Counted from the stretch's first letter, positions 9,040 through 34,996 are shown. The stretch is DNA of 64,000 nucleotides from Armatimonadota bacterium (GCA_039811685.1 JBDHZC010000004.1:197924-261923); one strand, 5' to 3'. Made by a program: numbers and translations. The notes: generated by a model not told the origin, from the letters alone.

Positions 9040-9249
9040 TCAGATCTGTCGAGGCTCCTCTGTGGAGCCTCCTTTTTCCTGTTGGCTGCCGGAAGCGTCT
9101 TGCTCGGGAGTCAGAGTCCTCGCCTTACATACGCCGCCGCAACTGATACACCTGGGCCCCTCGTATTCCAGGCACTGCATAAGGCCGCAGTCACGGCAGA
9201 CGACGGGAGTGATCACGGAATGCCAGCAGATAGGGCAGGCTACTTGCAA
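9040..9249 (-). CDS. Small Cys-rich protein (three CxxC motifs), putative zinc-ribbon protein
   Basis: 69-aa product with CPIC…CRDC…C…CISC. It lies 80 bp downstream of the MauE/DoxX gene on the same strand. The overlapping plus-strand ORF 9011..9349 has no features. Confidence 0.35.
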   Translation of the reverse strand: MQVACPICWHSVITPVVCRDCGLMQCLEYEGPRCISCGGVCKARTLTPEQDASGSQQEKGGSTEEPRQI

Positions 9250-9328
9250 GACAGGATATCCTTTTAGTCGTAGAGTACTGGAGGCATATTACCGCAAGCT
9301 GTACAGGCCGCGCAACCGTCGCCAGCCT

Positions 9329-9997
9329 CTAGGCAGGCGAGGTCTCTGAGGAATCCTCAGCATGGGTGAACGCTCGTAACGGTGCTTCCCGTGGCACGCT
9401 TACGCGCAGAACCAGCACGCTGAGCGCCAGACCCGCTAAGCGCCACACGACATGTCCCCACGAAATCTTGTCCGCGTCCGCAGAGGCAGTGCTGAGCGTG
9501 AAGCATCCGCAGTCAATATCCAGTCCACGCATCAGTGCGCTTGCCATGGCGATGGAGAACGTCAGATAGAGAATGGCGCTCACCAGCGCCGCTCCTCGCG
9601 TTACCAGCCCGAGAATGAGAAGTACGCCAGTTACAAACTCCACCCAGACCAGCGAGATCGTGAAGACGTTCACCAGAGCTCTTGGAAGAAGGCGGTAGTT
9701 TTCTACCTTGTTGGCAAAGGGCTGCGGGTCAAAGAGCTTGTTGTAGCTGGCGTAGATGAAAATCACGCCAAGCATCAAGCGCAGGGCGAACACGACGGCC
9801 TTCCTGCCAGCCAGCGCCGCACCCAACAGCACTGCGATCAGCAGCGCGAGCTGGAAAGGTTTGGAGAGATAGGCGCCTATCCTGTCTGACCCTCCCGCGA
9901 GTCCTCCGGATTGCCATTCTAGCGCCACGCGAATCGCCAGCGCTGCCAAAGCCACGGCCATCACCGCACAACCGGCTCTCGCGCGACCTGCGCTCAA
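9329..9997 (-). CDS. MauE/DoxX-family integral membrane protein
   Basis: Four or five TM helices and the MauE/DoxX-type DIDCGCF motif. Its start codon overlaps the rhodanese stop. Confidence 0.7.
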   Translation of the reverse strand: MSAGRARAGCAVMAVALAALAIRVALEWQSGGLAGGSDRIGAYLSKPFQLALLIAVLLGAALAGRKAVVFALRLMLGVIFIYASYNKLFDPQPFANKVENYRLLPRALVNVFTISLVWVEFVTGVLLILGLVTRGAALVSAILYLTFSIAMASALMRGLDIDCGCFTLSTASADADKISWGHVVWRLAGLALSVLVLRVSVPREAPLRAFTHAEDSSETSPA

Positions 9998-19077: not shown

Positions 19078-20913
19078 TTACTCCTCTTTGTACTCGGCCT
19101 CGATCACGTCTTCGCCGCCGTTCGACGCGGCGGCTGCCCCTGCCGGTTCCTGTTCCGGAGACTCCTGTTCCGCGCTCTGCCGGTAGAGAATCTCGCTAAG
19201 CTGATAAGCTGCCTGCTGCAGCTCTTCTGTGGCCGACGCGATATCCTGCTGGTTATCGCCCTTCAGCGCTTCCTGCAGCTTGTCGCGCGCGCTCTCCACG
19301 CGGGCGCGGACGTCTTCCGGCGCTTTGTCACCAAGGTCTGTCAGCGTCTTGTTGGTATTGTAGATAAGGCTGTCAGCGCGGTTCTTGATCTCCGCAACCT
19401 CTTTGGCCTTGCGGTCATCATCAGCGTGCGACTCCGCCTCGCGCACCATCTTTTCGATATCGCCCTTATCCAGATTACTGGAGCCGGTAATCGTGATACT
19501 TTGCTCGCGTCCGGAAGCCCGATCCTTCGCGCTCGCATGCAGAATGCCGTTGGCGTCAATGTCAAAGGTCACTTCGATCTGCGGGATACCACGAGGCGCG
19601 GGTGGAATTCCAGACAGGTGGAACATTCCGAGGCTCTTGTTGTCGCGGGACATCTCGCGCTCACCCTGAAGCACGTGCACTGTAACTTCGGTCTGCCCGT
19701 CAGCGGCCGTCGTGAATGTTTCAGATTTGCGCGTAGGGATCGTTGTGTTTCTCGGAATGAGCTTGGTGCACACGCCGCCCAGAGTCTCGATGCCCAGTGA
19801 AAGCGGTGTCACGTCCAGGAGCACAACATCCTTCACTTCACCCGCCAGAACGCCAGCTTGGATAGCAGCGCCTACTGCCACGACCTCATCCGGATTAACG
19901 CCCCTGTGCGGGTCCTTGCCAATGAGCTTCTTGACCAGCTCCTGCACCTGTGGCATTCGGGTTGAGCCGCCAACCAGAATCACTTCATCAATGTCTTTGT
20001 CCTCGAGTTTGGCGTCTTCAATAGCCTGCTTGTACGGCTTCACGCAGCGGTCCAGCAGGTCCGCAGTCAGCTCCTCAAACTTTGCTCGGGTGAGCGTGAC
20101 ATCCAGGTGCTTTGGGCCGTTAGCGTCGGCCGTAATGAAGGGCAGGTTGATGTTCGTCTGGACCACGTTAGACAGCTCAACCTTCGCTTTCTCAGCGCCT
20201 TCGCGAAGCCTCTGAAGCGCCTGCTTGTCTGAGCGCAGATCAATTCCAGATTCTTTCTTGAACTCATCAGCCACATACTCGACAATGCGCTCATCCCAGT
20301 CATCGCCACCCAGATGCGTATCGCCATGCGTGGACTTGACTTCGAACACGCCTTCGCCCACCTCCAGGATGGACACGTCAAACGTTCCCCCTCCAAGGTC
20401 CCAAACCAGAATGGTTTCGTTTTCCTTTTTGTCCAACCCGTACGCCAGGGCGGCAGCAGTTGGCTCGTTGATAATCCTCAGTACCTTGAGCCCTGCGATC
20501 TCGCCTGCGTTCTTGGTCGCTGTGCGCTGGGCGTCGTTGAAGTAAGCCGGTACAGTGATCACCGCGCTCTCCACTTTGTCCCCAAGGTAGGCTTCCGCGT
20601 CTGTCTTCAGCTTCTGAAGAATCATGCTGGATATCTCTTCAGGAGAATAGTTCTTGCCGTCGATCGAAACGCGCTTGTCCGTTCCCATATCGCGTTTGAT
20701 CGAGATCACGGTGCGCTCGGGGTTGACGATAGCCTGACGCTTTGCCTGCGTCCCTACCAGCCGTTCGCCATTCTTGGTGAATCCAACAACGCTCGCCGTA
20801 ATTCTGGAGCCTTCGGCGTTTGGGATGACGGTGGGCTCGCCGCCCTCCATAACCGCGACGACCGAGTTAGTGGTGCCAAGATCGATACCAACTGTTTTTG
20901 CCAATGCAATCAC
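19078..20913 (-). CDS. dnaK: Chaperone DnaK (Hsp70)
   Basis: Full-length Hsp70: [26 protein letters not shown], a substrate-binding domain and an EEVD-like acidic tail. A GGAGGTGA SD precedes the ATG. Confidence 0.97.
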
Positions 20914-21020
20914 CTCCGCCCGGAACTCGTCCGGTCTTTTTCACTGTGTAATCCGTGTGGAGCAGGCTCTGTTCTGAACCGCTCTCCAGTGGTTTTTACC
21001 CACATCTTTTTATCGCAGGG

Positions 21021-21070
21021 ATTATCAAGTATTGAGTCTAATATTGTCAATGCTCTTGCTAACAGCATTG
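21021..21070 (-). promoter_or_regulatory. Putative σ70-type dnaK promoter overlapped by an inverted repeat
   Basis: Minus strand: a TTGACA -35 (plus-strand 21045-21050), a 17-nt spacer and a TGATAAT -10 (plus-strand 21021-21027), about 100 nt upstream of the dnaK ATG. The inverted repeat CAATGCT-N9-AGCATTG (21048-21070) overlaps the -35. HAIR-like half-sites (ACTCAA / CTTGAT) overlap the spacer and -10. Confidence 0.4.
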
Positions 21071-21213
21071 TTCCCTTCTGCGAAGATTTTTATCGTTTTT
21101 TTGGTTCGGCCGCGCTTCGTTCGCACTTTGGCGGCGTCCGGCCGCGCACAGAGCTATCATAGGCTGCAGAAACGGGCAGTTCTGCCCGGACTCTTTACAC
21201 ATTCAGGAAACTA

Positions 21214-22113
21214 ATGAAACTTGCTTTGATTGGAACAGGTACAATGGGAGCGGCGATGGGGCGGCGATTTCTGGAAGCCGGGCACGACCTGGCTGTCTGG
21301 AACCGCACGGCTGAGCGAGCCTTACCTCTCAAAGAGCGCGGAGCAACTGTGACGCGCACTCCTCGAGACGCCGCACAGAACGCTGCGATAGTCCTGTCTT
21401 CTCTGAAAGATGACGAAGCCATTTGCGAGGTCGCACTTGGAGAGGATGGCATTTTGCGCGGGCTTCAGGATGGGGCCGTGCACTGTGATACAAGCACTAT
21501 CTCCCCTTCTGTAGCCTTCGATCTGTCCCAGTCGTATCACAACTCCAACCGCTTCTTTGTCCACTGTCCGGTGCTTGGAAGCAGGAGGCAAATCGCTGAG
21601 GGCGCCCTGCTGATGTTCGCAGCCGGGTCGGCTGAGGCTGTTGACACGCTGGAGCCAGTCCTCAGTCTTCTCGGGAAGCGGACGTGGCGATTTGAACAAC
21701 CTTCCGCAGCGGCGTCGCTGAAGCTGGCCTGCAATATGCTCATCGTGAGCATGATCTGTGGCTTTTCTCAATCACTGGCCTTTGCGCGTAAGAGCGGTTT
21801 GGATCCGGCCCTTTTCACGGAAGTCATCCAGTCTTCCGCTCTTGCTTCGCCGATGTACGCCAGCAAGGCCCGGCAGATTATGGAGGGGGACTGGTCGGCA
21901 AACTTCATTGTCAACAACATTATCAAGGATATCGACCTTGCTCTGGCAGCAGGAGACACTGAGAACGTCCCGCAGCCAATGCTGGCGATGATGCGCCAGT
22001 TCTTCGCCGCCGCCAGCGCCTCCGGGTATGCCGAGGAGGACTACTCCGCAGTCAGCAAGGTCTTCGCCCGGCTGGCCGGAGTCGACCCTGAGGCGTCAGC
22101 GGGAGGTGAATAA
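21214..22113 (+). CDS. NAD(P)-dependent oxidoreductase (3-hydroxyisobutyrate / 6-phosphogluconate dehydrogenase-like)
   Basis: N-terminal Rossmann motif MKLALIGTGTMGAAMGRR and a β-HAD-family pattern. Confidence 0.8.
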   Translation: MKLALIGTGTMGAAMGRRFLEAGHDLAVWNRTAERALPLKERGATVTRTPRDAAQNAAIVLSSLKDDEAICEVALGEDGILRGLQDGAVHCDTSTISPSVAFDLSQSYHNSNRFFVHCPVLGSRRQIAEGALLMFAAGSAEAVDTLEPVLSLLGKRTWRFEQPSAAASLKLACNMLIVSMICGFSQSLAFARKSGLDPALFTEVIQSSALASPMYASKARQIMEGDWSANFIVNNIIKDIDLALAAGDTENVPQPMLAMMRQFFAAASASGYAEEDYSAVSKVFARLAGVDPEASAGGE

Positions 22114-22116
22114 ACA

Positions 22117-22584
22117 GTGCCTTCAGAAGTTTTGGAGACTGTGGAGAACCGAAGCCGCAGTGGGTGCGGGTGCCGGAACGGGCTGCTTAGATGCCTGGTC
22201 GCCCTGTTCATCATGGCGGCAGTAGGCTTTGGCGCCTTCTACTGGGTTGTGGCACAGATTTCCAGGGATCTCGATCGCTACAGTGTCCGCATGACGGCCC
22301 CCTCGCCGGACGGACGCTTTGTCGCAAGTGTTGTGACGCATGGCTTCGGCGCGTCTGTCTCTCATAAAGAGGTAGGCGTCTATCTGCGCCCGCAGGAGCA
22401 GGAACCCGTCTATCAGGACCGCGCGGACTATGTTTTGTATGGAAAGCGCGACGATCTGACTGTGCGCTGGGCCTCCTCCGAGACGCTGGTAATTACGTTG
22501 CCTCCTGCTGGCCCCAGGTCCGAGTTTACCGTGTATCGAACTGTCTGGAGGAAGATCAAAATCAAGTACGTCTCCCGGCAGTAA
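22117..22584 (+). CDS. Hypothetical membrane protein
   Basis: Coupled to the upstream gene (4-nt gap), with one TM helix. No motifs recognised. Confidence 0.45.
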   Translation: MPSEVLETVENRSRSGCGCRNGLLRCLVALFIMAAVGFGAFYWVVAQISRDLDRYSVRMTAPSPDGRFVASVVTHGFGASVSHKEVGVYLRPQEQEPVYQDRADYVLYGKRDDLTVRWASSETLVITLPPAGPRSEFTVYRTVWRKIKIKYVSRQ

Positions 22585-22641
22585 ACATCCGGGAACCACT
22601 TTCAGATATGCGGAGTTATTCCTGCGGAGGAGCAATCCGAG

Positions 22642-24879
22642 ATGGCCGTCCAAGAGCACAGCGTCCATACCGCCCCTGAGGGCGAAGTTTGCGATCTGAG
22701 TATCGGTGGAATGCACTGCGCGTCGTGTGTGGCTAACGTCGAGCGCGCTTTGAAAAAAGTCCCCGGCGTCGAGTCTGCTTCTGTCAATTTTGCGACGCAG
22801 GAAGCCCGCGTTCACACCTCTTCGCATGTCAGCCCTGACGTCCTCGCGCAGGCGGTGCACAAGGCTGGCTATGAGGCGGAAGTCATCGTGCCGGAAAGCG
22901 CTGGGCACGACCATTCCCATATGCGCGATGAGTACCCGGACACCGTCCGCAGCTTCAGAACCGCCGCCGTTCTGACCGTTCCAGTTTTCATCCTTGGGAT
23001 GTTCTTTATGAACTGGTATCCGGGGCACTGGATATCGCTTGTACTGACTACGCCCGTCGTTTTCTGGTCCGGGCGCGGGTTCTATACGGGTGCGTGGGCG
23101 GCGCTGCGCCACAAGTCTTCGGACATGAACACGCTGATTGCGATGGGCACGTTCGCGGCGTACGCCTACAGTCTGGTTGCGCTGGTGGCGCCCGGTCTGC
23201 TGCACTCGATGGGTGGTCATCCCCATGTGTACTTTGAGACAGCCGCCGTCATCACGACTCTGATTCTCTTTGGCCGGATGCTGGAAGCCCGGGCGCGCGG
23301 GGAGGCCTCCACCGCTATCCGCAGTCTGATGGAACTCCAGGCAAGAACCGCGCGGGTTGTTCGCGGTGGGCAGGAAGTGGATATTCCTGTGGAGCAGGTC
23401 GTCACGGGTGACCTGGTCATTGTCCGCCCGGGGGAGAAGGTGCCGGTTGACGGTGTTATCACAGAAGGCGCTTCTTCGCTTGATGAGTCTCTCATGACCG
23501 GAGAGTCCGTGCCTGTTGAGCGCGGAGTAGGCGATGAGGTCATTGGAGGCACGCTAAACGCCGCGGGCTCTTTCACGTGCAAAGTCACGCGCGTTGGGCG
23601 GGAGACCGCCCTGCAGCAGATTGTGGAGCTGGTGCGCCAGGCTCAGAGTGAGAAAGCGCCCATCCAACGCCTGGCGGACCTTATCAGCGCCTGGTTTGTC
23701 CCCACCGTCATCGCTATTGCCGTTGTTACTTTTCTCGTCTGGTACAACGTGCGTCCGGTAGACACTCGCTTGACGGATGCATTGGTCTCCTTCGTCGCTG
23801 TTCTCATTATCGCCTGTCCCTGCGCTCTTGGGCTTGCCACTCCGGCGGCCATTATGGTCAGCAGCGGCGTTGGCGCGAAGCTTGGCATTCTCATCAAAGG
23901 CGGAGAAATCCTCGAGCGGGCAGGGCGCATCCAGACCGTAATACTGGACAAAACTGGCACTATAACGTCCGGAACACCGCAGGTGACAGATGTCATTGGA
24001 TTTGGAATAGAGCGCCTGGACGCGCTGCGGCTGGCCGCTGCTGTTGAGCGCCGCTCCGAACATCCCATCGGCGAGGCCATCGTACGCGCGGCTGAGTCAG
24101 AGGGCGCCGTACTTCCGGACCCTTCCGATTTTCAGTCTCTAGCGGGCTTTGGTGTTTCTGCAGCAGTAGAAGGCCAATCTGTTCAGGTCGGTAGTGTGCG
24201 GATGAACGCCACGCAAGGGGACCTGCCGGACAGCGTTCAGACGCAGGCCAGAACCCTGGCTGCTGATGGCAAGACTCCTGTGGTCCTCTGGGTGGAAGGC
24301 CGGCCCCTGGCTCTGATCGCCGTTGCGGACACCGTCAAACCGGGCTCTGCTGACGCTGTGTGCCACCTGAAAGCCCTTGGGGCAAAGGTAGTAATGCTCA
24401 CAGGTGATGACCGCCGCACAGCGCAGGCTGTGGCGGACCAGGTTGGCATCCAGCACGTTCTTGCGGAAGTTCCGCCGGATGGCAAGGCTACTCAGGTGAA
24501 AGCCGAACAGGCCACTGGCGCAGTGGTCGCGATGGTGGGGGACGGAGTGAACGATGCTCCTGCGCTGGCGCAGGCGGACGTAGGTATCGCTATTGGCGCC
24601 GGAGCGGACGTAGCGCTGGAAGCCTCCGACATCACTCTGATGCGTGGAGACCTTTCAGACGTTGTGAACGCTGTGCGCCTCTCACGAGCTACACTCTCCA
24701 CTATCAAGCAAAATCTCTTCTTCGCCTTTATCTACAACGCCATTGGGATTCCCGTAGCCGCCGGCGTTCTCTACCCGGTTACCGGCTGGCTCCTCAATCC
24801 GATGATCGCCTCCCTTGCCATGGCCATGAGCTCCGTCTCCGTCGTCACCAACAGCCTGCGCCTGCGCGGGTTCAGGTAG
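22642..24879 (+). CDS. copA: Copper-translocating P1B-type ATPase
   Basis: HMA domain GMHCASC, the CPC transduction motif ([11 protein letters not shown]), DKTGT phosphorylation site, GDGVNDAP and a TGES-like TGESVPV. Confidence 0.92.
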
Positions 24880-24893
24880 GCAACCCTCACACG

Positions 24894-24965
24894 TCGTACA
24901 CCTTCAGCACCTCGTCGCCGTAGTGGTTGATGACTTTGACGGCGATTTTGCCGGACCGCGATGCT
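24894..24965. repeat. Direct repeat copy 1 (72 bp): a duplicated 3' end of mod, downstream of the helicase gene
   Basis: 69/72 identical to 28617-28688. On the minus strand it would encode …VKVINHYGDEVLKVYDV*, which is the mod C-terminus, but here it is orphaned and noncoding. Confidence 0.85.
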
Positions 24966-24985
24966 GGCGAAATCCTTGGCGTTCC

Positions 24986-26179
24986 TTACAGGATATCTAT
25001 GTCGTCAGTTGTCAATGACTGGCCAGTGGGTTTGACTTCCTCTCCTTTCTGCCTGACGCTGACACTGCGCCCGATCTCCGGTTCTAGCCATTCAAGCTGC
25101 GGCAGCGGAGTTCCACTTGTACTCATATACACCCAGTCCTGTGCGCGTGTAGTGCCAACAAAAAGGAGATCCTCTGGCGGTGTGGGCACGTTCTCAAAGC
25201 GGTGCCACGAGAGGTAAGGCATGAAAACACTGTTGAATGTGAGTCCTTTTGCCGAGTAGTAGGTCATCACTTTTGGAGCGTCTGATGTGTGGTCCGCCTC
25301 TTTATTAAACTCAGCTGGGATTCCCGCTTCCTGCAGACCCTTGGTGTTTCCGATCGCTAGACGGTTTGTGGGTACAAGAATTGCAACTCGCTCTCCCATG
25401 TTCACCCGCTCTCGAACAAGTCGGATCAGATTCTCCGACTCGTCGTGGTAGTCTGCTGCTTTGTACAGGACCACCGTTTCGCTCTGCTTGGTTGGGGTGT
25501 ATTTCTGTGCCAGGAACTTCCCTCGCTCAGCCTCGTCGAGTAGGAAACACGCTGCCGCATTATGAACGTGGGGGCAGCACCGGAAGGCATTGATAAGGGC
25601 TATATTCTCCTGCTTTAGCCCCAGGGCTTCCAGCACCTGCCGCTCGTCAGTACCCTCTTCGTAGAGTCGCTGCTTCTGATCCATCGCTACCATAAGATGT
25701 CGACTGATCAAGGTGAGCGTGCTCAAGGATTCGGCATCAATATCCTGTGCTTCGTCCACGAGAACAAACTCATACAGTGGGCGAGGTAATCGCCGGGCTA
25801 GTAGATGGCTTCTCACTGCAGCTCTCATCTCCGTGAACGCAGGACATCTATCATTTCTGTTCCATGGAAGCTGCCGGCCAATGTGGTCTCTGTAGTAATC
25901 GCAACACCAGCTGTCCCAGGTGCAAACACTATCTTCCGGGAGATCAATCAAAGTGGAGTCGGCCTGAATGTACTCTTTCAGCGCATTTGTATAGACAAAC
26001 AACTTGAAACTGTCGGGAGGAAGACCGTACTTTGTTCGCAAATAGTCCGCGCGATGCACAAGAACCATGGACTTGCCAGAACCAGGAGGCCCGGTGATAG
26101 CTCGGCTTCCGTCCATAGGTTGCTCCACGGCCCGCTGCTGTTCGGGTGTCAGGCGTGCAAAAGGCACGAGCCAAGCCAT
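24986..26179 (-). CDS. Compact SF1 UvrD-like helicase with Cys-rich inserts
   Basis: Walker A GPPGSGKS, motif II FVLVDEAQD, a UvrD_C-like YYSAKGLTFNSVFM and motif VI VGTTRAQDWV. Cys clusters CTWDSWCCDYY and FRCCPHVHNAAACF are present. Its ATG lies 3 nt after the stop of the Hsp70-like gene. Confidence 0.8.
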   Translation of the reverse strand: MAWLVPFARLTPEQQRAVEQPMDGSRAITGPPGSGKSMVLVHRADYLRTKYGLPPDSFKLFVYTNALKEYIQADSTLIDLPEDSVCTWDSWCCDYYRDHIGRQLPWNRNDRCPAFTEMRAAVRSHLLARRLPRPLYEFVLVDEAQDIDAESLSTLTLISRHLMVAMDQKQRLYEEGTDERQVLEALGLKQENIALINAFRCCPHVHNAAACFLLDEAERGKFLAQKYTPTKQSETVVLYKAADYHDESENLIRLVRERVNMGERVAILVPTNRLAIGNTKGLQEAGIPAEFNKEADHTSDAPKVMTYYSAKGLTFNSVFMPYLSWHRFENVPTPPEDLLFVGTTRAQDWVYMSTSGTPLPQLEWLEPEIGRSVSVRQKGEEVKPTGQSLTTDDIDIL

Positions 26180-26182
26180 TTG

Positions 26183-28576
26183 CTACTCCTTCCCGCTGGG
26201 ACCGATTGGGAGCACCCCTCCTCCGTCTTCTCCATTGCCACCCATCTTTCGGCGACGGCTTTCTTCGTCACAAGCCGAAAGGAGTTTGTTGTCTCCTACC
26301 ATACGCGCTGCAAGGCGCAGCCAGCCCACCTCCCAATCCTCCAGAGCTTCAACAGGTCCGAACGTCTCAAGAGCTTGCGACAGCGCTGCATCTCGCCCGT
26401 CCTTGTCGCCTTGCCCGCTTAGGATTTTAGCGTAGAGAACGAGGTAGCCTGCTTCCCGTTCGCGTTCCAAAGCTTGCTCAACCAACAAACGCGCTTTTTG
26501 AAGTTCACCGCGATGCTCGAGAGAATCGGCGAGGTTAAATAGGGGCCCACCCCAGTTTGTGCCAGCTTGGGCCGCGGCCGTGTAGAAAGTCTCCTCCCGT
26601 TTATGATCGCCTAACCGCCCTGCGTAGATTCCGGCCAAGTTCAGCAGGCCCGGTTGCGGAGTACCGGCGATTGTATTTGCTGTCTTTAGATGACTGAGAG
26701 CCCGCTCGAATTGCCTTACCTCTGCACAGAGTACCGCGAGCTCCCGGAACGCGGCCACGCGGGCCCATCCCGCGTAATCTCCTGTTCTAATCTTTTCCTC
26801 GATCTCAATAATCTTACCGCGAGTCTCGTTTGGGTCGACCACGTGGGTCAGAGGCCGTTCAACTGTGAGGCCGAATGGACTCCCCGGCGCTCCAGCGCGA
26901 AATGCCCGTATTGCCAGCATCTGGTTGTCGTCCATATGATACTGAACTACTAGGGATTCCCCCTTGGTCACCGGTCCCGAGATCCTCCAAATCGCAGATT
27001 GCAGCCGACGCTGGGCACGTCCGTCGTCAGCCGTCAGATCGATCCGAAGATCCAATGATTCAGCTGTCTCCGGTATGCTAAGGGTGTCTATCTGGCCCCA
27101 GCCGTCCGCAGGATATGGCACAGCTTCGCCCTTGGGAATCAGGGTGAGAATCCCATCTCTTGTGCGGAGGCCGATGCTATCGCTCAGAACTGGCTGAATA
27201 AGACCCGCGCCAAAAAGGCGCAGTGCCAATGAGTGCAAGGCTGCCCCCTCGGCGACGGCAGTCTGTATCTGTCCGTGGTCGTCAAAAGTCCGCACTTGTG
27301 CTTGAGGCCCCAGGTGTTGTTCCAGCGCCTCCACAACCTGTGGAATCAGGCTGCTGCCGCCGACGAGTAGCACTGTATCCACGTCGGTTGGTCGCAAATT
27401 AGAGCGGGCTAGCGCATCATCCAGCGGCGCAAAGATGGAGCATGTGACGCCGTAATCACCCTCAATAGGCACTGTGATGTCTTCGTCGAGAAACGGAGCG
27501 AGGATTGCCTCGAACTGTTCTAGCGTGAGAGAGGGGCTGGGTAGCAGAAGCTGCCTGCCATTTAACACACACTGATGGCTTGATGGAAGTACTGCAGTGT
27601 GGCGATCGGTATCTGTCGGATCGAAACGCTTGAAATCCTTGAGCCTTCGTACGCTGTTGCACAGCGATATCTTCAGTGACTCAGCCACGCCGAGAAGGGC
27701 TGGCTCCAGGAAGTACTTTCGCTCCTTGAACTCTATTTCGCTGGACGATATCCCATTTGCTTCGAGCAATGCAGGAATCAGGACTTCATGTACAATGGAG
27801 TTATCAATGTCACCACCACCAAGCCGGTGGTAACGAGACACCGCTAGCGGAGCCACGCTTATCGGACGCTCCGGTGACTGGCGCGTGAGCTGAAGTACCG
27901 CTATGTCGCAGGTGCCGCCGCCGAAGTCGAACACCACAAGGCGCGACGAGCCGCAGCGCTGCAGGGGATCCTCGTCTGGTAGGCCGTTGAGAAAAGTCAG
28001 AAACGCTCCAATCGGCTCATCAAGCAGATCCCCCGGCATTATCTGTATGCCTGCTTCGCGTGCCGCCTCCACAGTGTCCGAGCGCTGGGGCACCTGGAAC
28101 GAGGCAGGTACCGTAACGACGGCCCTCTGAATGGCCGTGTCGTCGCGCAGCGTTTCCACCAGACACCCTAAAACTTTCGCTGCGATGTCGCGTGCGCATC
28201 GAAAGCCTTCCGGCGCCTGGTTGTAAGTGCGCGTAATGCCCATTTCATTCTTGCATTCGTAGAACAGGTCCCGGTAAGGTAAGAGGTTATACTCGGTGCT
28301 CTCAGCTCTTAGCCGCTTGGCGCCTTCCCCGACAAGTACCCGGTTTGGCAGAACAGCCACCACCGAAGGGAACAGCGGACTCGTAGTATTGCCGGCATTT
28401 AGTGTCTCTTGGGGAATATCGAGGCAACGCACCTGGACGCTCTCTGGCTGGTTTGGATCCCAGCTTGCCTCGGCGACAGTTGAATTCGTTGTACCGAGAT
28501 CAATGCCAATTCCCGTTACGGCTTCATCGGGTACGTCGTTCTGTCGTGCTGCCATAAGTTCACTGAAGTAGCTCAT
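26183..28576 (-). CDS. Hsp70-like ATPase (nucleotide-binding domain plus β-sandwich) with a C-terminal TPR array replacing the helical lid
   Basis: Hsp70/actin-fold motifs [20 protein letters not shown] and VLLVGGSSLIPQV. A β-rich segment is collinear with DnaK SBDβ. The ~250 C-terminal aa are TPR-like repeats. An AAAGGA SD precedes the ATG. This protein is distinct from the housekeeping dnaK at 19078..20913. Confidence 0.8.
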   Translation of the reverse strand: MSYFSELMAARQNDVPDEAVTGIGIDLGTTNSTVAEASWDPNQPESVQVRCLDIPQETLNAGNTTSPLFPSVVAVLPNRVLVGEGAKRLRAESTEYNLLPYRDLFYECKNEMGITRTYNQAPEGFRCARDIAAKVLGCLVETLRDDTAIQRAVVTVPASFQVPQRSDTVEAAREAGIQIMPGDLLDEPIGAFLTFLNGLPDEDPLQRCGSSRLVVFDFGGGTCDIAVLQLTRQSPERPISVAPLAVSRYHRLGGGDIDNSIVHEVLIPALLEANGISSSEIEFKERKYFLEPALLGVAESLKISLCNSVRRLKDFKRFDPTDTDRHTAVLPSSHQCVLNGRQLLLPSPSLTLEQFEAILAPFLDEDITVPIEGDYGVTCSIFAPLDDALARSNLRPTDVDTVLLVGGSSLIPQVVEALEQHLGPQAQVRTFDDHGQIQTAVAEGAALHSLALRLFGAGLIQPVLSDSIGLRTRDGILTLIPKGEAVPYPADGWGQIDTLSIPETAESLDLRIDLTADDGRAQRRLQSAIWRISGPVTKGESLVVQYHMDDNQMLAIRAFRAGAPGSPFGLTVERPLTHVVDPNETRGKIIEIEEKIRTGDYAGWARVAAFRELAVLCAEVRQFERALSHLKTANTIAGTPQPGLLNLAGIYAGRLGDHKREETFYTAAAQAGTNWGGPLFNLADSLEHRGELQKARLLVEQALEREREAGYLVLYAKILSGQGDKDGRDAALSQALETFGPVEALEDWEVGWLRLAARMVGDNKLLSACDEESRRRKMGGNGEDGGGVLPIGPSGKE

Positions 28577-28616
28577 GCGATTCCTTTCTTGCCAAGTTTG
28601 TGATGAGTTCCTTCCA

Positions 28617-28688
28617 CCCTCACACGTCGTACACCTTCAGCACCTCATCACCATAGTGGTTGATGACTTTGACGGCGATTTTGCCGGA
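28617..28688. repeat. Direct repeat copy 2 (72 bp): the native 3' end of the mod gene
   Basis: Identical to 24894-24965 except for 3 transitions; it encodes the last ~22 codons and stop of mod. Confidence 0.85.
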
Positions 28689-31415
28689 TTCGGGACGGGC
28701 GAAGGGGCGGCTTGTGGTGAGGTAGAGATCGGCCCACGCAGCTTCGTCCACCTCCGCTCGGAGCGCTCTCTTCAGTTTGTCGTATGGCTCGCCTGCGCCT
28801 GTGAAATAGGCGTGGCGCACGAAGAAGCTCTCTTCGTTGTAGCTCGTGTCTATGAACCAGGCGGCGATCTCGTCGGTTGCGTCTGACCGGAGCTCGCCAG
28901 TCGTCGGATCGTAGATGTCCACACCGCGGATAGTCACCTGCACCTGGTCGCCAGACAAGTGGCTCACCACGATATCCGGCTCTCCGAAGATCATGAAGAG
29001 GTTTCCGGCGCCGGTTTTCTTCAGGAGTTCGTCGCCCATCGTGAGGTCGGCGTTGATCCTTGTGGGAAGGACGACGAGGTTTCCGTAGCGCTTCGTCTCC
29101 TCGCCGACGTGTGGATCGAAGGCGAGGCCGGCGATGAGGAGCGTGTCGAATCCAGCGCCCTTCACAGCCTCCTTGGCGGCTTCACGTACGAGGTCCGGCG
29201 TGACGGTCCCAAACTCCGGGCCCACACAGACGGCCACCCGCTTTGTGGTCTCCCCTTCCGTATATTCACCGGCCGCGTGCAACCACTCGCCAGGGTAGAT
29301 GTCCAGACGGTCGAACTTCAGCCGCTCACCCTTGACGGTGTTCTGGACACCGGCCTTCTTCATGTTTTCGATGATGGTGACGCCAAACTCGCCCGCTCCG
29401 CGGATAGAGAACTGGTAGCCGTCCTCCGTCGGCTTTTCAAGCTCTTTTTTGCTCTGCACGGATATCTGGCGGTGAGGAGACAGGCTTTCGACGGTGAAAG
29501 GGCCTGTAACGCGGATGCGCTTGTTGTCTTCGTAGGGCTTGTCGTAGAGAAACTCGGCGTCGGCCCGGCGGGCGATGCTGGCGTCAATCTCCTGCTGGCG
29601 CTCCCGGCGCAGGTCCCACCATTTCTTCAGCAGGGCCTCCGCCTCACTGCCCACTGGCTTCTTCCCGCTGTCCCCTGTCCGCGGCACTTCCCACTCTTCC
29701 CAGCTCTTTCCGAAGGCCTGGTTGATTTTTGCTCGCAAGTCCTCCAGCGCGGGCTGCCACTTTTCGTGGATGGTGTCTATCTCTTCGTTGTTGGCGATGG
29801 ATTTCAGCGTGATGTGCGGCACGCGCTGGTAAACAAAGCCGCGCTTGATGTCGTGGCCAGTGGTCAGTGATTGGTGGTCAGTGGGCAGTGAGGCGTGGTC
29901 GGCTTCCAGCCCTCTGATTTCGGACTCTTTCTTGCGCCCCTCGGGGGAATCGGCCAGCAGGTAGTAAGGAAACTTCGCGCACATAAGGCGTGTGCGGGCA
30001 AGGGTCAGCGCTACGCGAGAGGTGTCGCAGGTGATCCAGCGGCGTCCCCACTGCTCCGCTACGTACGCCGTCGTGCCGCTGCCGCAGGTGGGGTCCAGGA
30101 CGAGGTCGCCGGGGTCGGTGGTCATGAGGAGGCAACGCTCGATCACACGGCGCGCGGTCTGGACCACATACTGCTTGTCTTCGCTCCAGCCTGCTATGAC
30201 GGTGTCAGTCCAGAGAGCGTTCAGTGGGACAGCACCGAAATCGTCGAGGAACCTAATGTACCCTGCCGAACTGCGCCGCGCGGAAACGCGACCGGCAGTG
30301 ATCAGACGCGCCATACCTTCAGGGTTCGACTTGTAGCTGTTCGCATATGTGCGCCCGTTCACTACCACCTCGAATACAGGGTTGCCTTGTGTCGCCAAAT
30401 TGTCGTGGCGGAACAGCTTGCTGCCGGCCGGCAGCTGTTGTATCGCAGCTAAATCATCTGTCGGGAGTGTGCGGGTACTTCCGTCAGGCAGCATTGCATA
30501 GCGGTATTCTGCTGTGCCGCCACCGCCCAACTCCTTGTTTAGGTAAAGCTGATGGTACTTCACAGCCTCTCGGTTCTTCGTGTACCACAGCAGATAGTCT
30601 GCAACCCCGGTCAGCAAGCGCGACTGGAAACCGCTGGTTTTCGCAAAGACTATCTCGCCGCAGGAATTCTCACTCCCAAACACCTCGTCCAGAAGGCACC
30701 GCACCAGGTGCACGTTCTCATCACCAATCTGCACGAACACGCTGCCGGATTCAGTGAGAAGCTCGCGGGCGACGACCAGCCTGTCGCGGAGATACGCGAG
30801 GTACGAGTGGATGCCGTACTCCCACGTGTCCCGGAACGCCCGGACCTGCTCCGGCTGGCGCGTCAGGTCAGAGGCTGCCCCGTCCTTCACATCGCGCTTG
30901 CGCGTGGACACCTGCCAGTTGCTGCCGAACTTGATGCCGTAGGGCGGGTCTATGTAGATCATCTGGACCTGCCCCTTCAGCCCCTCCTTCTCCGCCAGCG
31001 AGTTCATCACCAGCAGGCTGTCGCCCAGGATCATCCTGTTGGACCAGTGGTTGGCGTGCTCGTAGAACTGAATCTGTTCCTCGAACGGCAGGCCGTTGAA
31101 GGCATCGCCGAACAGATCGAGCTGGGCGGGGGGCGCTGGAGACGCTTGGGCGCTCGCCTGCCGCCGGAAGTCCTCGATAATCGCCTGCGGGTGAATCTTC
31201 TCCTGAATGTAGATGGGGACAGACAGCACGGACAGGTCCTCAGCGTCCTGCTGGTCCTTGCCCTTCCACACAAGCTGGGGGTCCAGCGACGGATCGCGCG
31301 GATACAGCACCGCCTTCGGCTTCTGCTCGTCCTCGCTTACAAACCCTCGAAGCTCCTCCGTCGGTATGTTCGGCCGGGTGTCGGAATGGGTGATGTTCTC
31401 AATCTTCTTGTTCAT
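28620..31415 (-). CDS. mod: Type III-like restriction-modification DNA methyltransferase (Mod; N6-adenine/N4-cytosine class) with a long C-terminal extension
   Basis: Catalytic IYIDPPYG motif, AdoMet-binding region (LDPTCGSGTTAYVA) and a ~350 aa C-terminal extension. Start set at ATG 31415 (MNKKIENI), which has an AGAGGA SD. The ORF track opens it at GTG 31442. Confidence 0.85.
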   Translation of the reverse strand: MNKKIENITHSDTRPNIPTEELRGFVSEDEQKPKAVLYPRDPSLDPQLVWKGKDQQDAEDLSVLSVPIYIQEKIHPQAIIEDFRRQASAQASPAPPAQLDLFGDAFNGLPFEEQIQFYEHANHWSNRMILGDSLLVMNSLAEKEGLKGQVQMIYIDPPYGIKFGSNWQVSTRKRDVKDGAASDLTRQPEQVRAFRDTWEYGIHSYLAYLRDRLVVARELLTESGSVFVQIGDENVHLVRCLLDEVFGSENSCGEIVFAKTSGFQSRLLTGVADYLLWYTKNREAVKYHQLYLNKELGGGGTAEYRYAMLPDGSTRTLPTDDLAAIQQLPAGSKLFRHDNLATQGNPVFEVVVNGRTYANSYKSNPEGMARLITAGRVSARRSSAGYIRFLDDFGAVPLNALWTDTVIAGWSEDKQYVVQTARRVIERCLLMTTDPGDLVLDPTCGSGTTAYVAEQWGRRWITCDTSRVALTLARTRLMCAKFPYYLLADSPEGRKKESEIRGLEADHASLPTDHQSLTTGHDIKRGFVYQRVPHITLKSIANNEEIDTIHEKWQPALEDLRAKINQAFGKSWEEWEVPRTGDSGKKPVGSEAEALLKKWWDLRRERQQEIDASIARRADAEFLYDKPYEDNKRIRVTGPFTVESLSPHRQISVQSKKELEKPTEDGYQFSIRGAGEFGVTIIENMKKAGVQNTVKGERLKFDRLDIYPGEWLHAAGEYTEGETTKRVAVCVGPEFGTVTPDLVREAAKEAVKGAGFDTLLIAGLAFDPHVGEETKRYGNLVVLPTRINADLTMGDELLKKTGAGNLFMIFGEPDIVVSHLSGDQVQVTIRGVDIYDPTTGELRSDATDEIAAWFIDTSYNEESFFVRHAYFTGAGEPYDKLKRALRAEVDEAAWADLYLTTSRPFARPESGKIAVKVINHYGDEVLKVYDV

Positions 31416-32004
31416 GGGTCCTCTGGGCCTCATGGGACGCACGCTGAATGTTACGTTGCCGCAGCCGCGCCCGCGTCATGCGCTCGCGCAGGCCACCTTC
31501 CTCAAGGAAGGACTTCTCCAGGCTTCTCAGCAGGCGGTCCAGCAGATAGTTCGTCTGGTGAATCAGGCAGATGATGGTGTTTGCCGCGACCTCCGGAGGC
31601 GCGTGGGCCACACGAGTCTCATAAGTCTTATAGGACACATGCTCCCCGTACGCCAGCTTCCGGATTACCTGCGCCTGCGGGTGGTTTTTGTCCCACGCCG
31701 GCAGTTTGCGCGTGCGCAGAAAGTCGCGGTAGTCCTCCAGAAGCTCCTCCAGACTGGCGCGCGCGACGTTCATCAGCTTGATTTCCGTCTCTTTGGAGGT
31801 CGCCGAAGCCATGCTCCCTTCCACGATGTTTTGCTTGCCAGACCTTGCCGCCTGAATCATCTGATCGTGTGTCCGGCTGCGCCTGTCAACAAAGCGCTGA
31901 CAAAAGGCGGCCGTCGCGTCATAGACGATCCTGGCTTTCTGGTAGGCCGCAAGGTCCTGGTAGCCTCCGTGCTTCGGGATGAAGCCTGCTTCAGACATCG
32001 GCAT
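31399..32004 (-). CDS. Four-helix-bundle protein (TIGR02436; 23S rRNA intervening-sequence protein family)
   Basis: Characteristic block …QKARIVYDATAAFCQRF…QMIQAARSGKQNIVEG…EIKLMNVARASLEELLEDY…. It overlaps res at its 5' end and mod at its 3' end. Confidence 0.75.
   Translation of the reverse strand: MPMSEAGFIPKHGGYQDLAAYQKARIVYDATAAFCQRFVDRRSRTHDQMIQAARSGKQNIVEGSMASATSKETEIKLMNVARASLEELLEDYRDFLRTRKLPAWDKNHPQAQVIRKLAYGEHVSYKTYETRVAHAPPEVAANTIICLIHQTNYLLDRLLRSLEKSFLEEGGLRERMTRARLRQRNIQRASHEAQRTHEQED
31413..31441. repeat. Res/Mod junction repeat, copy A (29 bp)
   Basis: CATGGGTCCTCTGGGCCTCATGGGACGCA matches 32002-32030 at 26/29. In one frame it encodes the four-helix-bundle C-terminal tail ASHEAQRTHEQED*; in another it encodes MRPMRPRGPM, which leads into mod. 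Confidence 0.8.
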
Positions 32005-34996
32005 GGGTCTTGTGGGTCTCATGGGACGCATGATGGAGCCAGGCCCGTATCGTCTGCTTCGCATCCCACGGATCGCTTATCTCCAGGAACGCCCAGCGGC
32101 CGTAGCCGCCGTGGTTGTTGATGGCTGGAACCCACAGTGTCCGGGCCGTAGCGGTCTTCGCCGTCTTGTCCTTTCTCTTTTCACCGGAGCACTCGAGGAT
32201 CAGGTTCAGCGTCTGTCCGTCCCCCTGCCGGACGTGGCAGATGAAGTCCGGGATGTAGCTGCGCTCCTCCCCGGAAAGCGAATAGGGAATTGTGAAGCCG
32301 AGGTTGTGGTTCTTGACGTAGTGTGCGACTTCGACCATCTCCTCCAGCGCCTGCGCAAGTTTTTGCTCCCACGACTCCGTGTCGGCCACGACGTGCGAGA
32401 TGTGGCACTTTTCCGGATCGGTCGCATACACCGGGCGCGTTGTGTCGAAGTCCACGTAGCGCGTGGAGCCGACGGTGTCATACGGTCGCAGGATCGGTAT
32501 CAGCCGCTTTTCGCCCTCCTGGGACGCCACAATCGCCCTGTAGATACGGTCGGCGGCGTCGTGCTGAAACTGGGTCAGGAGCATAAGCTGCGGGAAGCAG
32601 TTGTCCTTGCAGGTGAGGCATTCCTCAAGCCAGCGGCGGGCGATTTCGACCAGATCCGGGAAGTACCAGTGTTTGATATTACCCTCTTCGTCCCGGAAGT
32701 ACGCCTCGAGCGTCCGTTTGGCCAGGATAAAGGCCACCTCTTGCATTCGGTGTTTGCGAAGGTCATCCAGGTTGTGAATAACGGTTTCACCGACAAAGGC
32801 GCCCATCTTCGTGCGAGTGGTAACATCTTCGGTCGTGAGGGCGAAGCGTGAATCCTCTGTGAAATCTGCGGTCAGCCGCTCCGCGGGAAACTCATAGCGG
32901 TATCCCGAAACACGCGGGAAGGTGATCTCGCATGCAATCCGGTCTTCCAGCGCCCGGACGCGCGTGGGGATCGGTCCGGGTTTCGGGTCGGTCATCGAAC
33001 CGGCCGCCGGGATAAAGGAAAACGGAACGCCGTACACCTCTGCGTATTCTGCGGGGAACAGCCCGTTGTCATCCGGCTGATGGCTCATTCGGCGCAGCCC
33101 GCGTCCAACCACCTGCTCACAGAGGAGCTGTGTCCCAAATGCGCGTACCCCGAGGATATGGGTCACGGTGTTCGCATCCCAGCCTTCGGTGAGCATTGAG
33201 ACTGAGACAACGCAGCGCACATGCTCCCCCAGCTTTCCCCGTTTACCGACCGTGTTCATAACCTCGCGCAGCAGGTCCTCATCGGTCAACTTGCTGGCGT
33301 CGCGTCCAGGGAAGCGCGCTACATACTCCGCCTTGAACTCCTCGATCTCGGCGGCGGCTATCTTCTTGAACTCATCGCTCATCGCCTCGCCCGATTCGAG
33401 CTGCTCGCTGTCAATCAGAATCGTGTTCGGACGGTGCAGCCACTGGCCGTGCTCGACATTGCTGAAAAGAGGGAGCGCCCCGGGCACATTGACCGTCTGG
33501 CCATCTTCGAGCGGTTTCTCCCATCCGGCGATGAAGTCGAAGACGAGCTTCGAAACGTTCGTGTTGTTGCAGACGACAATGAACACCGGCGGAACGCCGG
33601 AATTACCGGCGTCATCTGTGCTCTGCTCCCACTGCCGGTAGTATTTCTCGTAGTTGCCGTAAAGGCTGCGAATGGCGCCTTCCAGCTCTGCTGGCAGCTT
33701 TGGTTCAACGGGAGCAGCCTCCGTGCCGCGGCCTTTTTTCGGGAGATCGTCCCGGATGCGCGTCCACAGATCGCGGTACGTCGGCTGGTCGCCCGTCATG
33801 GAATCGTCCGCTACGGGCACGCGCGGGACTTTCACGATGCCGGACTCGATGGCGTCCACGAGAGAGAAGTCCGAGACAACCCACGGGAACAACATCCCTT
33901 CCGGATAGCCTGACCCGCGAAGGAAGAACGGTGTTGCGGACAGATCGTAGATGGCCTTTACACCTATCTTGTTCTTGACCGCCTCAATGCCTGATATCCA
34001 GACGCGGGCTGCTTCGTCGCGCTTCTGCGCCTCTTTGCGCTCATCGCCGGTCAGCTTTTCTTCGGGGGCTTCCGGCTTGCGCCTGTAGCAGTGGTGCGCT
34101 TCGTCGTTGATGACGATGATGTTCTTCTTCGAGCCAAATTGCCGGCACACTCTGCGCACCATTTCATCGGGCGTCTCCGTGAACGTCGAGCTTGACGAAC
34201 CTCCACGCGACTGCAGCACCTCTTTGGTGAGCTTCCCGGCCGAGATCTTTTCCCGGTGGAGGAATGCGTGGTAGTTCGTGATGAGGATATTGGCCTGACC
34301 GAGATCTTCGCGCATGTCGGCGGGCACAACATCCATAGTCCGGTAGTAGTTGTCCCCGTCGTTTGGGAGCAACACGCGCAGGCGGTCTTTGATGGTGATT
34401 CCCGGCGTGATAATCAGAAAAGTATCGGAAAAGCGCGTGTCCTGCCGGTTTGCCAGCTTGTTGAGGGTGTGCCAGGCGATAAGCATGGCCATAACGACCG
34501 TCTTGCCAGTTCCCGTGGCCATCTTGAGCGCAAGGCGGTCCAAACCGGGATTGCTGGCGTTGTTGAAGTCTTTCAGCTTTGTGGCCAGGGACGCATCGCC
34601 CATTTTGCCCGCGCACTCGGTTAGGTAGATCAGAGTCTCCAGCGCTTCGATCTGGCAGAAGTAGAGCCGCCGCTCGCGATCTTCAGCGGTCCAGTGCGCA
34701 AGAAGCTGCCGGGTAACGGGGGTAACGCCTGGTCTGCCCTCCCGCCGCCACAATCCCACGCGCTCGCGCACCAGATTGATGAAGGTATTCTCTTCGATTC
34801 GCTCCTGCGTCCATTCCGTAGCCAGCACAAGCTGTTTGCTTTTCTTCTTGGCTTTTGGGACGGGAATGAAGTAGGAGCTGCGCCTGCGGCTTTCGACGAT
34901 GTCGCTCGTGATGCCATCTTCATCGAAGCGGAAGTGGCGGCGGGGCTCCTCAAAAGGAGAGTTGATAACGGGGTTTTCGATTACGACCTGAGCCAT
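31991..34996 (-). CDS. res: Type III restriction endonuclease Res subunit (SF2 helicase-nuclease)
   Basis: Classical Res N-terminus MAQVVIENPVINSPFEEPRRHF. Helicase motifs I (MATGTGKT) and II (VINDEAHH) and motif VI (QVVGRGLRR) are present across ~1000 aa. Confidence 0.9.
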   Translation of the reverse strand: MAQVVIENPVINSPFEEPRRHFRFDEDGITSDIVESRRRSSYFIPVPKAKKKSKQLVLATEWTQERIEENTFINLVRERVGLWRREGRPGVTPVTRQLLAHWTAEDRERRLYFCQIEALETLIYLTECAGKMGDASLATKLKDFNNASNPGLDRLALKMATGTGKTVVMAMLIAWHTLNKLANRQDTRFSDTFLIITPGITIKDRLRVLLPNDGDNYYRTMDVVPADMREDLGQANILITNYHAFLHREKISAGKLTKEVLQSRGGSSSSTFTETPDEMVRRVCRQFGSKKNIIVINDEAHHCYRRKPEAPEEKLTGDERKEAQKRDEAARVWISGIEAVKNKIGVKAIYDLSATPFFLRGSGYPEGMLFPWVVSDFSLVDAIESGIVKVPRVPVADDSMTGDQPTYRDLWTRIRDDLPKKGRGTEAAPVEPKLPAELEGAIRSLYGNYEKYYRQWEQSTDDAGNSGVPPVFIVVCNNTNVSKLVFDFIAGWEKPLEDGQTVNVPGALPLFSNVEHGQWLHRPNTILIDSEQLESGEAMSDEFKKIAAAEIEEFKAEYVARFPGRDASKLTDEDLLREVMNTVGKRGKLGEHVRCVVSVSMLTEGWDANTVTHILGVRAFGTQLLCEQVVGRGLRRMSHQPDDNGLFPAEYAEVYGVPFSFIPAAGSMTDPKPGPIPTRVRALEDRIACEITFPRVSGYRYEFPAERLTADFTEDSRFALTTEDVTTRTKMGAFVGETVIHNLDDLRKHRMQEVAFILAKRTLEAYFRDEEGNIKHWYFPDLVEIARRWLEECLTCKDNCFPQLMLLTQFQHDAADRIYRAIVASQEGEKRLIPILRPYDTVGSTRYVDFDTTRPVYATDPEKCHISHVVADTESWEQKLAQALEEMVEVAHYVKNHNLGFTIPYSLSGEERSYIPDFICHVRQGDGQTLNLILECSGEKRKDKTAKTATARTLWVPAINNHGGYGRWAFLEISDPWDAKQTIRAWLHHASHETHKTHADV
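32002..32030. repeat. Res/Mod junction repeat, copy B (29 bp)
   Basis: CATGGGTCTTGTGGGTCTCATGGGACGCA encodes the res C-terminal tail ASHETHKTHADV* in one frame and MRPMRPTRPM, leading into the four-helix-bundle protein, in another. Confidence 0.8.

Follow-up and report, generated by a model that had tools for sequence, protein, structure and literature searches.

A repeated mod gene tail brackets a Hsp70-like/UvrD-like gene pair in a Type III-like restriction–modification operon

Introduction

Accessory defence genes are carried within, or appended to, restriction–modification (RM), BREX and DISARM operons, as exemplified by PrrC in EcoprrI and BrxU in BREX. Here we describe a 64,000-nucleotide (nt) stretch of Armatimonadota DNA (JBDHZC010000004.1:197924-261923; 'the window' hereafter denotes this stretch at its full length), in which the last 22 codons of mod, the methyltransferase gene of a Type III-like RM operon, are present twice, once at the end of the working gene and once as an orphan tail, with a Hsp70-like ATPase gene and a UvrD-like helicase gene enclosed between the two copies. 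The locus resembles the PrrC and BrxU cases in that a defence operon serves as the platform for extra defence cargo, but reports of those cases describe gene content and not a tail-duplication footprint of cargo arrival.

Integrative elements often bring with them the 3′ end of the gene they target, which then stays behind as a direct repeat. As with elements in the 3′ ends of tRNA, tmRNA or protein genes, which are bounded by attL and attR, the repeat in the window is the 3′ end of the target and the target stays intact; such elements, however, need a tyrosine or serine integrase and a fixed core site, and the window has neither. They are also discussed in work on a second class of event, insertion with long target duplication, which has been documented around RM genes and whose mechanism is unexplained (Nobusato 2000 type; Furuta, Abe & Kobayashi 2010, PMC2853133). 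In the published cases (PMC2853133), a small defence unit without a mobility gene lies between near-identical direct repeats of more than 30 bp, variable in length between cases, much as in the window; there, however, it is the RM unit that has been inserted, and an empty-site genome shows a single copy of the repeat, whereas here an RM gene is the target and the insert is a two-gene module. Unlike those cases, the orphan tails related to that of the window look like diverged alleles and not like copies of one target.

Orphan 3′ gene fragments are also known from Rhs, contact-dependent inhibition (CDI) and type VI secretion system (T6SS) effector loci, where they result from C-terminal displacement that has been ascribed to homology-facilitated illegitimate recombination (Kirchberger et al. 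2017, PMC5361080, citing Jackson 2009, Poole 2011, de Vries & Wackernagel 2002 and others). Those loci and the present one have in common a conserved upstream anchor gene, new cargo adjacent to it, an old 3′ end that has been pushed downstream in the same orientation and is decaying, and the lack of a recombinase, and arrays can build up in the same manner, as in two of the loci described below (L055 and L064). The displaced part in Rhs, CDI and T6SS loci is, however, a functional variable toxin tip together with its immunity gene, whereas here it comes from where the gene is most strongly conserved, serves no evident purpose and accompanies unrelated, defence-type cargo.

Results

Repeat finding and DNA search revealed exactly two copies of a 73-nt direct repeat in the 64-kb window, copy A at 24883-24955 and copy B at 28616-28688, identical at 70/73 positions and with starts separated by 3733 nt. 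Local alignment of the two copies scored 65.5 against a shuffle maximum of approximately 12, and none of 100 shuffled sequences contained a repeat match. A previous reading of the window, made from the sequence only, had proposed this repeat, which is real and far beyond chance; that reading had nevertheless placed copy A at 24894-24965, 10-11 nt out of register. On the minus strand, copy B comprises the last 22 codons of the working mod gene (…SGKIAVKVINHYGDEVLKVYDV), the stop codon at 28620-28622 and the 4 nt that follow it, in agreement with the sequence-only reading, which had assigned its 28617 copy to the last approximately 22 codons and stop of mod. Copy A, on the same strand, holds 22 codons (SGKIAVKVINHYGDEVLKVYDV), a stop codon at 24887-24889 and again 4 nt, with no gene body upstream; scored by a profile of mod tails it reached 57 bits (E = 2.9e-15). 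The orphan lies 30 nt past the helicase stop codon (24986-24988), where 20 bp had been read, and its outer edge is 3 nt from the stop codon of the convergent copA gene (24877-24879), which bears out its earlier placement next to copA; the orphan and copA stops are 7 nt apart, with no other DNA between.

The sole three mismatches between the copies lie at plus-strand positions 24914, 24917 and 24920, each a G in copy A and an A in copy B, in line with the G/A transitions noted earlier. On the coding strand they read TAC/TAT, GGC/GGT and GAC/GAT, that is, synonymous third positions of three consecutive codons, of which the orphan has the C-ending forms, as expected for mod (GC content at third codon positions (GC3) 0.78), and the working copy the T-ending forms. 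The mod protein itself runs unbroken through the conserved C-terminus of its family, whose last 22 residues are nearly invariant in an alignment of 20 homologues and would therefore make a good homology anchor. Between the copies, 3.66 kb of DNA hold only two genes, at 24986-26179 and 26183-28576, both on the minus strand, exactly the two module genes of the previous reading, and the non-coding DNA at the two cargo ends amounts to only 30 nt and 39 nt. A possible upstream prolongation of the orphan (a common TTCGCC with a 1-nt shift) was judged too weak to count. The helicase stop, TAA (24986-24988), is in frame with the orphan tail 30 nt on, and read-through would add ...GTPRISPASRSGKIAVKVINHYGDEVLKVYDV; this shared frame is probably a coincidence, expected in 1 of 3 cases.

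A dispersed generic repeat was ruled out: the window has two copies where 0 are expected, and a 32-nt core of the repeat occurs neither in the 80 related RM loci nor in any other locus retrieved, except for loci of the source contig and contig L002, which is described below.

The source assembly is an Armatimonadota metagenome-assembled genome (MAG; GCA_020846715.1), and such a structure could in principle reflect a false join, whether collapsed or chimeric, or an episome that the assembler had linked to the chromosome by way of the shared 73-mer. We compared the window with contigs of independent Logan assemblies. Contig L170 (SRR31740696) equals window positions 20907-24912 with 0 mismatches and ends 30 nt into the repeat, confirming the copA–orphan junction; all contigs with an identical copA (L170, L253, L254 and L255, from four samples) end at the same position, 24912, which is the behaviour of a k=31 graph at a repeated 31-mer. 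Contigs L002 and L004 begin at 28645 and cross the Hsp70-side junction, and L002 crosses the helicase-side junction too; the limits of L003 (3720 nt, present in two samples) are set by the repeat's two exact blocks. Independent samples thus yielded three of the four junctions, copA to tail, tail to helicase (L002, L003) and Hsp70 upstream region to tail (L002-L004), with 0-3 mismatches, whereas the fourth, from the repeat into the body of mod, is the natural continuity of the mod protein seen in all homologues. A second contig, of 338 kb, encodes the same proteins in the same neighbourhood. From these junctions, the continuity of mod and the second contig we conclude that the structure is real. 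Although a k=31 graph alone cannot separate the integrated form from a circle plus an empty site, the copies differ at three positions and therefore are not one collapsed sequence, and we regard an assembly artefact, against which the sequence-only reading had advised a check, as highly improbable. The site was occupied in each of the four Logan samples with an identical copA (contigs break at the repeat), and the module insertion appears to be fixed in the sampled population.

Contig L002 (SRR31740696; window 28645..24883) has a length of 3763 nt, equal to 3733 + 30 (the repeat spacing plus k-1), carries the same 30 nt at both ends and has the B-type patch in the copy beside the helicase, that is, at the orphan position. 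The graph of this sample accordingly contains a cycle, running from the helicase through the tail to the Hsp70 upstream region, that is entered from copA and has no exit into mod; the protein of the gene between res and mod, a 23S rRNA intervening sequence protein (IVP), is not on record in identical form for SRR31740696. Such a contig is the signature of a cycle in a k=31 graph and speaks for a Campbell-type integration, in which a circle with one mod tail and the module would enter by a single homologous crossover in the 73-nt tail, giving exactly a direct repeat of the homology around the insert, and would remain excisable without any recombinase of its own. However, L002 begins exactly at the repeat boundary where the copA contig of the same sample, L170, stops, which shows that the cycle is attached to the chromosome; tip clipping and bubble popping can account for the missing exit. 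Assembler cleaning, a popped bubble of three single-nucleotide differences together with a clipped tip, can produce the L002 cycle; so could tail plus module in circular or tandem form, or a gene conversion involving copies A and B. Contig L003 breaks on both sides, as the integrated form predicts, 73 nt is short for RecA, and such a circle has no evident origin, so that we consider a Campbell-type integration improbable. We attach a similarly small likelihood to the idea that the mod tail acts as a portable homology arm, whereby a 3733-bp cassette of tail plus module would loop out through the 73-nt repeats and re-enter genomes that have the conserved Type III mod C-terminus, L002 being its circular or tandem form; if true, the invariant ends of RM genes would carry defence cargo from phylum to phylum.

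To place the gene pair in context, we sampled two sets of loci, taking the best 80 matches per scan. A one-genome-per-species scan gave 80 RM loci with the same res and mod (mod 54-64% identical), out of at least 574 that the family comprises, and neither the Hsp70-like gene nor the helicase was found within 10 kb in any of them (0/80), which rules out the pair as a regular partner of the BPTD_3080-type RM family. The GC3 of the pair is 0.575-0.59, compared with 0.74-0.78 for the RM genes (mod 0.78) and 0.67-0.69 for host genes. The Hsp70-like/UvrD-like pair is an add-on that is foreign to the RM operon.

The Hsp70-like protein has 4163 homologues at approximately 45% identity, the nearest at 49%, and its ATPase motifs are invariant. 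In 80 metagenome loci (L087-L166) a helicase homologue lies immediately downstream of the Hsp70-like gene in 58 of the 70 with sufficient sequence, and the gene upstream of the module is co-directional in 40/47. Frequent immediate neighbours elsewhere are Type IIG enzymes, DrmD, DrmMI and DrmA of DISARM, PglX, BrxA and BrxH of BREX, PsyrA, MkoA (Mokosh), DndB and Mrr. The pair is a widespread, conserved two-gene defence-island module, and because it sits elsewhere among Type IIG, DISARM and BREX genes, the cargo, judged by the company it keeps, is probably a defence module. No PADLOC (v2) family matched the Hsp70-like protein, and the helicase gave only weak matches (GajB-like and NERD+UvrD-like). 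A literature search found no paper on a Hsp70-like/UvrD pair as a defence system and placed Hsp70-like domains in defence only in CoCoNuT and GTPase-centric systems. The Hsp70-like/tetratricopeptide repeat (TPR) ATPase and the short UvrD-like helicase are thus a candidate for an undescribed defence system. A phage-borne origin of the module was rejected, since viral contigs gave one ortholog only and the other matches were phage DnaK-like proteins.

No direct repeat flanks the module in 55 of 56 other module loci, and a mod or res tail was found near it in none of 81 (0/81): the repeat belongs to the target gene and not to the cargo. The exception, L127, makes the same point at a different gene. 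There one side of the module is taken by the 3′ end of a rhodanese-like gene (…GWRAWCAAGYPTEDEEKAGRSDGS, then stop), a non-defence gene convergent to the module, and the far side by an orphan allele of this tail (…GLRAWCAAGYPTERE, then stop), which has its own stop codon and three synonymous differences; the repeat is 33 nt long, with arms at 2713-2745 and 6990-7022. A self-mobile element with terminal repeats of its own was therefore ruled out, the more so as no inverted pair has arms at both ends of the cargo in the window. The earlier description of the module as a discrete, mobile-looking unit holds in its first part, given the absence from the 80 RM loci, the GC3 values and the pairing in 58/70 loci; 'mobile-looking' was an overstatement for a module that has no ends of its own.

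Orphan tails recur within the RM family as well. When six-frame translations of the loci were scanned with profiles of gene tails, a second copy of the res tail was detected in four loci (L055, L064, L079, L085) and one of the mod tail in L011 and in the window, in every case on the same strand as the intact gene and downstream of it. Including L127, the repeats are 33, 60, 73, 102, 109, 125 and 126 nt long, start at varying points and involve three target genes. Differences between the intact and orphan copies at first/second/third codon positions number 3/1/12 in L064, 1/3/16 in L055 and 0/1/3 in L011, and the orphans of L079 (with an in-frame stop) and L085 are more decayed. L011 (Desulfobacteraceae MAG CAYVMN010000018.1, 12671-18655) has a mod-tail duplication of 60 nt, identical at 56/60 positions, in which the intact mod ends …VYDLND and the orphan ends …VYDT with its own stop; the cargo between comprises a prokaryotic Argonaute (pAgo; Piwi, 776 amino acids (aa)), a DpnII-MboI-domain protein (410 aa) and a Schlafen/AlbA_2-HATPase protein (461 aa). 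In L055 an AAA-ATPase gene follows the orphan, and this junction aligns colinearly with the native one between res and the ATPase gene in L081, which marks the distal junction as old and native and the cargo that adjoins the intact gene as the newer. Four further apparent res-tail duplications were discarded: L027 owing to a scaffold gap (a run of N), L032 as a 61-nt repetitive extragenic palindromic (REP)-like tandem beside a RayT-like gene, and L086 and L022 as weak and of low complexity.

The variety of these orphans (approximately 33-126 nt, with variable starts and three target genes) speaks against the site-specific insertion that had been offered as one explanation of the repeat. Such an insertion, or a transpositional one, would place an integrase-recognised att site in the mod tail, or bring in the module as a transposon or integron cassette, with the enzyme acting in trans or since lost. 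The tendency of integrative elements to duplicate the 3′ end of their target counts in its favour, as does the observation that both mod orphans, those of the window and L011, apparently begin at the same codon, the G of GKIAVKV; this shared start, however, coincides with the onset of conservation in the family and so is probably a detection limit. Neither an integrase nor a transposase nor a resolvase domain was present in the Pfam annotation of the called neighbours from uvrA to dnaK, as the sequence-only reading had found for the first two, terminal inverted repeats are lacking, the 30 nt from the helicase stop to the repeat are too little for an attC, and 55/56 other module loci are without repeats. 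Together these data render a site-specific or transpositional origin very improbable.

Discussion

The account that we favour, and to which we give about even chances, is that the orphan tail is the scar of a 3′-end displacement by homology-facilitated illegitimate recombination. In the ancestor, a res-(cargo)-mod operon would have ended, with mod, 7 nt short of the stop codon of the convergent copA. DNA arriving from a related operon, carrying a mod 3′ end followed by the Hsp70-like/UvrD-like pair, would have recombined homologously inside mod, and its far end, at most 30 nt beyond the helicase stop, would have been joined illegitimately to the resident mod 69 nt ahead of its stop. The outcome would be an intact, partly donor-derived mod, then the new cargo, and then the former last 22 codons of the resident gene stranded beside copA, with no need for an element-encoded recombinase. 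On this account the 30-nt spacer at 24956-24985, read from the sequence and spanned by contig L002 from another sample, must hold the illegitimate (non-homologous) joint. That the steps belong to one event, how the donor was arranged and where the homologous crossover fell are inferred.

Five features fit a 3′-end displacement: variable repeat length, three different targets, a constant orientation and downstream position, divergence of the allelic kind (in some cases with a separate stop) and a native distal junction. The geometry of the window, with the orphan downstream of mod in the same orientation and the cargo exactly between the copies, is the same in L011, L055, L064, L079, L085 and L127. 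Third positions account for 12/16 of the orphan differences in L064 and 16/20 in L055; in the window they account for 3/3, although these are few and clustered. Judged from such substitution patterns, copies A and B of the window are more likely to be donor and recipient alleles than a duplicated target.

Several observations weigh against the displacement account. The donor arrangement, mod followed by the module, was found in 0/80 RM loci and 0/81 module loci, and there is no close relative, the next mod homologue being 66% identical (among 5.8 billion proteins) and the next Hsp70-like protein 49%. An unoccupied site was not found either: exact-protein look-ups of copA (722 and 745 aa), res, mod, the IVP and a 299-aa host gene led solely to truncated contigs or to sites that were occupied. 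Copies A and B have 96% identity, with the three differences within 7 nt, which also fits a true duplication and one short conversion or damage patch, and the GC3 profile of mod has no donor-like 3′ segment beyond the three-codon patch, only the central specificity region showing a dip. At the other loci, moreover, a true duplication could have come first and the intact gene could later have been exchanged for another allele, which would leave the same pattern. The case for displacement is thus weaker for the window than for the family.

In a true insertion with long target duplication, module DNA without mod homology would have entered the mod tail and 73 nt would have been copied to both sides, for example by staggered breaks and fill-in, with the three-nucleotide patch arising later. 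The near-identity of the repeats (70/73) is like that of published cases with 44/46 or 47/47 identical positions (PMC2853133), the repeats exceed 30 bp, the insert (3.66 kb) is below 20 kb, no mobility gene lies in or beside it and the repeat is not dispersed. A mod tail beside the module was found in none of the 80 RM and 81 module loci, and all three differences are C-to-T on one strand, for which one clustered damage or conversion event could suffice. However, three third-position changes in consecutive codons, with none elsewhere in an orphan that should be neutral, are unlikely to be independent mutations, for which the rough estimated probability is ~1e-3, that is, (1/3)^3 times the clustering probability; the other orphans of the family and that of L127 differ as diverged alleles do, some with stop codons of their own; and the mechanism of this class has never been established. 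We consider a long target duplication unlikely, though a serious rival all the same. Of the earlier proposal that the module entered with duplication of its target, the duplicated sequence stands, but the synonymous-only differences here and the third-position-biased divergence elsewhere suggest two alleles.

Displacement and long target duplication are both mechanisms of already known kinds. The homology-based or illegitimate route that the previous reading had allowed for is the best fit, recombinases being absent, and the module is best described as cargo moved by host recombination, acquired without an element-encoded recombinase and not self-mobile. The 73-nt repeats would allow RecA-dependent loss of the module, which would restore the mod–copA arrangement.

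The locus provides a concrete, datable footprint of how a defence island can grow without mobile-element machinery: the homology comes from a conserved RM gene, new cargo enters next to it and the former gene end persists as a scar. One widespread Type III family shows this scar in several phyla, at a cargo slot behind res as well as at one behind mod, and the module of the window has it at another gene too; a systematic search for orphan gene tails could therefore reveal defence cargo of recent acquisition and put acquisitions in order. The finding shows that this Type III family repeatedly accretes defence cargo by a displacement-like route, and it flags the pair of Hsp70-like/TPR ATPase and UvrD-like helicase as worth anti-phage testing.

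Additional features of the locus

A second, smaller footprint lies at the res–mod junction of the window. A 34-nt repeat with 85% identity and a spacing of 589 occurs on the minus strand at 32002-32035, where the 3′ end of res feeds the start codon of a four-helix-bundle gene, and at 31413-31446, where a second copy of the res tail/start-codon junction feeds the start codon of mod; it scored 21.5 against a shuffle maximum of 11. In cargo-free relatives the ATG of mod overlaps the res stop (…CATGGCTAA). The four-helix-bundle gene in the res–mod slot is a second, small cargo. The final ~14 codons of its open reading frame (ORF) are read from the duplicated res tail.

In the BPTD_3080-type Type III family, variable cargo occupies the slot between res and mod: mod begins between ~20 nt and 4 kb past the res stop, at most 100 nt in 15/68 loci and more than 400 nt in 50/68. 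Among L007-L086 the slot contains AAA_15/AAA_21 ATPases of 407-603 aa (L032, L047, L053, L055, L079, L081), PIN-like small genes (L064), four-helix-bundle genes (L022, L086) and many unannotated ORFs.

The order of genes on the minus strand of the window is res, the four-helix-bundle gene, mod, the Hsp70-like ATPase gene, the UvrD-like helicase gene and the orphan tail, the whole bounded by uvrA and copA. The first gene of the operon, res (31991-34996), encodes a 1001-aa restriction endonuclease of the BPTD_3080 family (Pfam ResIII; NCBIfam NF046055, 1226 bits), and the four-helix-bundle gene (31399-32004) matches the 23S rRNA IVP/4helix_suffix families (Pfam PF05635; NCBIfam TIGR04258 and TIGR02436). 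The mod gene (28620-31415, with an ORF extendable to 31442) encodes a 931-aa Type III-like methyltransferase (Pfam N6_N4_Mtase; PADLOC MTase_III PDLC03632, 1016 bits). The two cargo genes follow: the Hsp70-like ATPase (26183-28576; 797 aa) has Pfam HSP70 at residues 23-265 and a C-terminal TPR region (TPR_2), and the short UvrD-like helicase (24986-26179; 397 aa) has Pfam UvrD-helicase, UvrD_C and AAA_19, its PADLOC matches being the weak ones given above. On the plus strand, copA (22642-24879), represented in Logan contigs L170, L253, L254 and L255, encodes a P-type copper ATPase (Pfam E1-E2_ATPase, HMA and Hydrolase) and is a convergent host neighbour that marks the boundary outside the element. 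A scan of the gap between mod and the module and of the orphan for promoters and terminators gave nothing exceeding shuffled expectation.

The central part of mod, codons ~271-420 (~30156-30605), is poorly conserved, and GC3 drops there from 0.8-0.95 to 0.58-0.70. This part is presumably the target-recognition domain, which suggests that the specificity domain has been exchanged separately from the conserved ends.

Finally, in L032 a 61-nt REP-like unit stands in tandem at the res stop (7195-7315), and the same res–mod gap contains a RayT/IS200-like ORF (9239-9892; 217 aa, assigned by its N-terminal sequence only). Here the slot has gained sequence by another route.

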